DNA from: Escherichia coli O127:H6 str. E2348/69
GTDB taxonomy: Bacteria > Pseudomonadota > Gammaproteobacteria > Enterobacterales > Enterobacteriaceae
Strand: one strand, 5' to 3'
Length of the DNA: 64,000 nucleotides
NCBI RefSeq assembly: GCF_000026545.1
Contig: NC_011601.1
The notes beneath the pieces were generated by a model, which saw only the letters and a list, made by a program, of their open reading frames with translations, did not search any database and had not been told where the DNA came from. The translations under genes and the position numbers were made by a program. Positions 5,470 to 5,731 of this stretch are shown here, piece by piece. The stretch's first letter is position 1. Each line of letters opens with the position of its first letter.

Positions 5470-5551
5470 CGCGGTACTCCGACCATTTGTTATACAGGTG
5501 TTATTGTCTTTGCGTTTATAATATGACAACCATCACAAAAATCAATCTTTA

Positions 5552-5567
5552 TGTGATGTAAATCACA
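5552..5567. promoter_or_regulatory. CRP binding site, perfect consensus TGTGA-N6-TCACA
   Basis: tgtgatgtaaatcaca, about 85 bp upstream of the azuC start codon in the azuC/yecR divergent region. Confidence 0.55.
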
Positions 5568-5731
5568 TAAACACCCCTTTAATGTTATAAAAATGATAAT
5601 CAAAAAGCAGCCCCCCAATTTCTGACACATACAGATGGCAAGAAATAGCGCCTGCCAGGCGTCTTTTCCGGCCATTGTCGCAGCGCTGTAACGCGTAAAA
5701 TACTGCTTTCTTTTACTCTTCTGGCTGGACC

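Follow-up and report, generated by a model that had tools for sequence, protein, structure and literature searches.

A perfect CRP palindrome upstream of azuC in Escherichia coli E2348/69 and its probable role as distal operator of a repressing CRP pair

Introduction

The spacer between the divergently transcribed genes azuC and yecR of Escherichia coli E2348/69 (EPEC) carries a palindrome that reads as a flawless CRP site. Which of the two genes this palindrome serves, which regulator recognizes it and with what regulatory sign is the question raised by the locus. The window is the whole stretch of DNA that was analysed, 64,000 nucleotides in length, and positions are given in its numbering unless a K-12 coordinate is stated. 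The original prediction, made from the letters of the window, connected the palindrome to the reported carbon-source control of azuC and used it as an internal check on the position of this very small gene. The explanation that is retained here, with a probability of roughly 0.85, is that the palindrome is the high-affinity distal member of a cAMP-CRP operator pair in the sigma-70 promoter of azuC, through which CRP represses the gene when glucose is absent.

Organization of the azuC-yecR locus

The azuC coding sequence lies on the minus strand at 5383-5469 and comprises 28 codons followed by a stop (MKLRKILKSMFNNYCKTFKDVPPGNMFR; ORF list and RefSeq WP_010723106.1). It is the portion of a listed 48-residue ORF that begins at an internal ATG. 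Region 5300-5800 is 100% identical to the E. coli E2348/69 record NZ_CP059840.2, in which RefSeq labels the 28-codon ORF azuC, an annotation that bears out the placement first proposed by translation of the sequence. The divergent neighbour yecR is found on the plus strand at 5732-6055 (ORF list and RefSeq) and the spacer between the two genes is exactly 5470-5731. The coding sequence is embedded in the dual-function RNA AzuCR (5353..5511, minus strand), whose extent follows the RefSeq K-12 ncRNA azuR (1987843..1988001), and a sequence scan finds its terminator hairpin at 5381..5356 on the same strand. Rfam gives no family at gathering score in 5200-5800. The 28-residue AzuC has no match in Pfam; its orthologues carry the label PF28150:AzuC in the contig index.

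Of 5426 complete E. coli genomes, 5419 give a match to 5300-5800 in a sequence search, and in 13 of those 5419 no match reaches 80% coverage of the query. In E. coli O157:H7 Vac_07.1 an IS1203 element (IS3 family) is inserted on the yecR side about 36 bp from the palindrome, with its junction at ~5604, and this genome gives no match for the azuC side of the query. Insertion sequences are also seen at the border of the window, whose positions 1-1050 start within the transposase gene of an IS4-like ISEc13; next to it, the annotation gives araH as a truncated gene that lacks its C-terminus. In E2348/69, yedD and dgcQ are frameshifted according to the annotation.

Two CRP boxes upstream of azuC

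A pattern scan of the window finds tgtgatgtaaatcaca at 5552-5567 with 0 mismatches to TGTGA-N6-TCACA, exactly as had been predicted. As an operator the distal box reads TGTGATGTAAATCACA (5552..5567, a 10/10 palindrome without strand preference), is centred at 5559.5 and lies 48.5 bp upstream of the azuC transcription start. Counted from the A of the azuC ATG, its near edge is 83 bp and its centre 90.5 bp away, in good agreement with the ~85 bp given originally. Perfect sites of this kind are rare: 3 are observed in the 64 kb, compared with 0.10 expected from dinucleotide shuffles of the window. The K-12 version of the box, TGTGATACAAATCACA, has arms identical to those of TGTGATGTAAATCACA and differs from it by two substitutions in the central 4 bp, which are uncontacted (GTAA in E2348/69, ACAA in K-12). 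GCAA is a third variant of this centre in E. coli.

The original prediction recognized this distal box correctly but missed a second one, which overlaps the core promoter. The proximal operator TATGACAACCATCACA (5522..5537; TGTGATGGTTGTCATA on the azuC strand) has a single mismatch (9/10), is centred at 5529.5, corresponding to -18.5, and is one of only two 1-mismatch CRP sites that a mismatch-tolerant scan detects in the 64 kb. The centres of the two boxes are exactly 30 bp apart. The K-12 proximal box (isrB/azuC) is identical in sequence (TATGACAACCATCACA) and occupies the same position. In every azuC-bearing genus the box reads ...TCATATTAT, and its sole mismatch (TCATA vs TCACA) falls on the initial T of the -10 hexamer. 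The proximal box thus carries a "mismatch" because the CRP box and the -10 hexamer share bases. Three of the attributes by which a CRP operator is recognized are found in the sequence of this locus: a symmetric core (10/10 at 5552-5567, 9/10 at 5522-5537), a position in the promoter from which CRP can act (-48.5 and -18.5) and constrained arms around a free centre (11 Escherichia sequences).

Position of the boxes in the azuC promoter

The azuC start used for E2348/69 is the K-12 position transferred by alignment. AzuCR starts at K-12 coordinate 1988001 (Raina 2022, Fig. 1 legend, PMC8915982), in agreement with the RefSeq limits of azuR, and the alignment, which has no internal gaps, carries this position to 5511 on the minus strand. 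The same paper (PMC8915982) places the ORF at "40 to 126 nt", which leads to a start at 5508 and hence to an uncertainty of 3 nt. A consensus scan of the azuC strand identifies the candidate -35 hexamer TTGATT at 5540..5545 (-34 to -29) and, after a 16-bp spacer, the candidate -10 hexamer TATTAT at 5518..5523 (-12 to -7). The former is identical in all azuC-bearing genera examined and the latter is kept across genera. TTGATT-16-TATTAT (5545..5518) is the only sigma-70-like match on that strand and ends 7 nt before 5511. The distal box covers -56 to -41, centred at -48.5, and adjoins the upstream border of the -35 hexamer. The proximal box covers -26 to -11, filling the spacer between the two hexamers and having 2 bp in common with the -10 element. 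If the start at 5508 is taken instead, the box centres move to -51.5 and -21.5.

CRP reportedly activates from -41.5, from -61.5 or from their helical-phase equivalents. The azuC boxes, at -48.5 (or -51.5) and -18.5, occupy neither a Class I nor a Class II position. The protein and the 16-bp core motif are the same as at the Class I promoter lac (-61.5) and the Class II promoter galP1 (-41.5), but the azuC boxes stand at positions that belong to neither class, and CRP acts there with the opposite sign. The -48.5/-18.5 geometry fits repression and not activation of either class. The original prediction would have counted a non-functional distance between start and palindrome against the site, and in this respect the geometry that it assumed was wrong: -48.5 is indeed non-functional for activation, but the control exerted is repression. 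An alternative azuC promoter with the distal box at -41.5 was considered and rejected, the required -10 position (5530..5525) reading GTTGTC.

CRP control of azuC in the published record

The palindrome and its partner box are already known as published CRP sites of azuC. Table S3 of Shimada 2011 (PMC3105977) lists TGTGATACAAATCACA and TATGACAACCATCACA as the CRP boxes of the isrB(azuC)<>yecR spacer, and that study cites the RegulonDB entry for them. The same spacer, there named yecJ/yecR, is the most abundant clone in the genomic-SELEX selection for CRP (59 of 160; Shimada 2011 Table S2, PMC3105977) and also a CRP peak in SELEX-chip (Shimada 2011, PMC3105977). Note that the box positions in Table S3 (1.98604e6 for the palindrome, 1.98607e6 for TATGAC...) are apparently interchanged with respect to their order in the genome; the higher coordinate in U00096.3 is that of the palindrome.

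As Raina 2022 (PMC8915982) relays the findings of Hemm 2010, AzuC-SPA is raised in a crp mutant and CRP represses azuC; Fig. 1A of the former paper draws the "predicted CRP binding sites" of the latter. Both AzuC-SPA and AzuCR are high in glucose and low in glycerol and galactose (PMC8915982). A point against the CRP model is that changes in IPOD-HR occupancy were located "not at those [CRP] sites but further upstream" (Ekdahl 2025). Taken together, the record supports the palindrome as a genuine CRP operator of azuC that underlies the reported carbon-source control. The link that had been drawn between site and carbon source therefore stands on two published boxes, the top SELEX match and derepression in the crp mutant, with repression as its sign.

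Conservation of the boxes and their association with azuC

Eleven Escherichia sequences were compared, from six E. coli, one E. albertii, two E. marmotae and two cryptic-clade genomes. In the distal box the arms TGTGAT/ATCACA are invariant (0 of 12 positions vary) and all four central positions vary, with GTAA, ACAA, GCAA, GCGA, CTGA, CTGC and ATGC found as centres. This difference between centre and arms is significant (Fisher p = 5e-4), and 32 positions vary in the 120 bp around the box.

Other genera were reached through homologues of the neighbouring protein YecJ, AzuC being only 28 residues long. The azuC gene is found in Enterobacter hormaechei, Kluyvera and Kosakonia, where its divergent neighbour is an MFS transporter gene and not yecR. 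All three carry two CRP-like boxes with 1 mismatch each, 30 bp apart, in unchanged register with an identical TTGATT-16-TATTAT. No such box pair is present at the five yecJ loci that lack azuC (Salmonella, Citrobacter, Klebsiella aerogenes, Cedecea and Buttiauxella), and the palindrome is missing from a distant yecR locus without azuC, L009 (Logan SRR14202255). At these loci the box pair is kept with azuC and absent without it, which shows that the boxes go with azuC and do not belong to yecR. The adjacency of azuC and yecR itself seems confined to Escherichia. At L009, ftnB is directly followed by a yecR of 61% identity and neither yecJ nor azuC is present, and in Salmonella, which has no azuC, an rpiB/LacAB-like gene separates yecR from yecJ.

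Just upstream of the palindrome, the block TAAA(C/T)ACCCCTTTAATGTTATAAAAATGATAA (5568-5602) is almost invariant across Escherichia species, and no equivalent of it is seen in Enterobacter, Kluyvera or Kosakonia. It holds NarP and PhoP motifs according to Ekdahl 2025 and also contains the plus-strand sequence TGtTATAAA.

The significance of the site is small beyond an annotation check, which shows that azuC and its promoter are correctly placed in this EPEC-type window. The use originally made of the palindrome, as an internal check on azuC, holds as a check of consistency and amounts to no discovery. What the comparison contributes is that the boxes published for K-12 are kept across Escherichia as well as in three further genera of enterobacteria and, as a modest addition, that comparative data assign them to azuC rather than to yecR.

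A model for CRP repression of azuC

In the explanation given most weight above, cAMP-CRP would occupy both operators when glucose is absent and azuC transcription would be repressed. The distal dimer at -48.5 would adjoin the -35 element, where contacts of the alpha-CTD with an UP element would be made, while the proximal dimer at -18.5 would sterically exclude RNA polymerase. With a spacing of 30 bp the two dimers would lie on approximately one face of the helix, with the -35 element between them, and cooperation between them across this distance is assumed. In this model the sequences, the positions, their conservation and the linkage to azuC are observed directly, and CRP binding, the crp derepression and the transcription start are taken from the literature.

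Several CRP-repressed promoters, spf (coding Spot 42), cyaA P2 and gal P2, have their operator inside or beside the core promoter. The azuC promoter would resemble them in that cAMP-CRP acts negatively by occupying promoter DNA and not by recruiting RNA polymerase. The likeness to spf extends to the product: AzuCR and Spot 42 are both small regulatory RNAs of carbon metabolism that are highest in glucose, and Spot 42 is likewise called CRP-repressed (PMC8915982). What would set azuC apart from spf, cyaA P2 and gal P2 is its arrangement of two operators 30 bp apart that bracket the -35 hexamer, the distal one perfect and the proximal one fused to the -10 hexamer.

Divergent transcription towards yecR

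Transcription of yecR depends on FlhDC. A FlhDC ChIP-seq peak lies at 1986188 (NC_000913.2) and yecR RNA falls from 653 in the wild type to 2 in a flhD deletion (Fitzgerald 2014, PMC4183435). The offset between version 2 and version 3 K-12 coordinates is ~1977, consistent with the Shimada positions 1.98604e6/1.98607e6 set against 1988019.5/1988049.5 in version 3. Transferred with this offset, the FlhDC peak falls at about 5675; the palindrome is 115 bp away from it and the yecR ATG 57 bp. Two halves thus make up the spacer, an azuC-proximal one with a CRP-controlled promoter and a yecR-proximal one with a FlhDC class-2 promoter. Within the FlhDC-controlled half, ~5640-5700, AAATAGCG at 5643-5650 resembles a FlhDC half-site. 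A plus-strand hairpin at 5649-5661 was considered as an attenuator and set aside: it is present in E. coli, and its stem is not kept in E. marmotae or in the cryptic clades.

A candidate divergent promoter core, TATAAT, is found on the plus strand at 5517-5522, where it overlaps the azuC -10 hexamer TATTAT (5523..5518, minus strand). The start that this hexamer predicts on the plus strand, ~5529, is 18 bp from the azuC start at 5511, as in a bidirectional promoter. Such a plus-strand start would put the palindrome at +30.5, which fits the "+30" of a yecR entry in Myers 2013.

Alternative roles of the palindrome

That the palindrome is a functionless chance match can be considered effectively refuted by its rarity, its partner box, its conservation and the SELEX data. 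Short palindromes can arise randomly in AT-rich spacers, but only 0.10 perfect sites are expected per 64 kb, a partner lies at exactly 30 bp, invariant arms flank a variable centre, the architecture is kept across four genera and the spacer is the top SELEX match. Activation of azuC by CRP, bound at the palindrome in a Class I or Class II manner, would be a natural expectation for a perfect consensus upstream of a promoter, most CRP sites being activating. It is nevertheless very improbable, as the centre at -48.5 (or -51.5) is not at -41.5, -61.5 or a helical-phase equivalent, the second box sits inside the core promoter, and expression, which is high with glucose but low with glycerol or galactose, is raised in the crp mutant (PMC8915982). 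A role in yecR regulation, either by activating a plus-strand promoter (TGtTATAAA at 5583-5591, with CRP at about -39) or by blocking a start at ~5529, deserves somewhat more attention and is still rather unlikely. The palindrome does lie in a shared divergent spacer, a setting in which both promoters are often CRP-controlled (Shimada 2011, PMC3105977), the extended -10-like TGtTATAAA is 24-32 bp from its centre on the plus strand, and the motif is entered at +30 of a yecR start in Myers 2013. Against this role, the drop of yecR RNA from 653 to 2 without FlhD leaves essentially no FlhDC-independent transcription of the gene under those conditions, and the block 5568-5602 is not conserved outside Escherichia. 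Moreover, azuC has the CRP pair in three genera where yecR is not its neighbour, and the pair is absent both from the L009 yecR locus, which has no azuC, and from Salmonella, where yecR is apart from yecJ.

The palindrome could also be mainly an operator for FNR, whose anaerobic binding would repress azuC and/or yecR and leave CRP a secondary role. Among the alternatives to CRP repression of azuC this is the least improbable, though it too is unlikely. The FNR site reported at 1988042-1988058 coincides exactly with the palindrome, has PhoP and NarP motifs just upstream, and derepression follows both mutation of the motif and knockout of fnr (Ekdahl 2025). In Myers 2013 an FNR ChIP-seq peak has its centre at 1,986,025 (version 2 coordinates, about 5512 in the window) and is classed as FNR-repressed. 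Mutating the "FNR" motif necessarily destroys the CRP box as well; since both regulators have been assigned to the same sequence, the published motif-mutant data cannot separate CRP from FNR. It is a modest gain of the present analysis to recognize the 2025 "FNR site" and the strongest genomic-SELEX CRP site as one and the same stretch of DNA. Within 5470-5731, GTGATGTAAATCAC, which is the CRP palindrome itself, is the only FNR-like site with at most 2 mismatches. FNR and CRP are dimeric regulators of one family, and the palindrome shares with the FNR operator TTGAT-N4-ATCAA the same symmetry and 8 of the 10 core positions; yet its core GTGAT-N4-ATCAC scores 8/10 for FNR and 10/10 for CRP. Both FNR mismatches of GTGATGTAAATCAC are outer ones, with G/C in place of T/A, at the positions that discriminate CRP from FNR sites. 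These CRP-type bases are invariant in the 11 Escherichia sequences. FNR matches of 8/10 quality are close to chance in number (55 in the window, 40 expected), against 0.1 expected for CRP matches of 10/10, and in vitro CRP picked the azuC/yecR spacer above all others (Shimada 2011, PMC3105977). Repression of azuC by the CRP pair is thus preferred, with additional cross-binding of FNR at the palindrome as a possible complement. A broader proposal, in which azuC would be held by a conserved "two-operator clamp" around the -35 element, the palindrome being shared by CRP and FNR to combine carbon and oxygen signals and the core acting as a bidirectional promoter with both of its outputs silenced by CRP, is speculative and seems doubtful as a whole.

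Other CRP sites in the window

The two other perfect CRP palindromes of the window are both found upstream of genes. One, TGTGACGCGCGTCACA, is located at 41837-41852 between yodD and yedP, about 100 bp upstream of the latter; its K-12 counterpart upstream of yedP is the 1-mismatch site TGTGACGCACGTCACC, in a region with the SELEX-chip CRP peak "dsrA< >yedP" (Shimada 2011, PMC3105977). The other, TGTGATAAAAATCACA at 49903-49918, precedes drpB (yedR) by about 60 bp, with a porin gene about 575 bp away, and the K-12 counterpart upstream of drpB, TGTGATAAAAGTCACA, is likewise associated with a SELEX-chip peak (Shimada 2011, PMC3105977). A 2-mismatch box in the araF-ftnB spacer, TGAGAGCCATATCGCA at 4097-4112, is the known CRP box of araF, which is listed as TGAGAGCCATCTCGCA in Shimada 2011 (PMC3105977).
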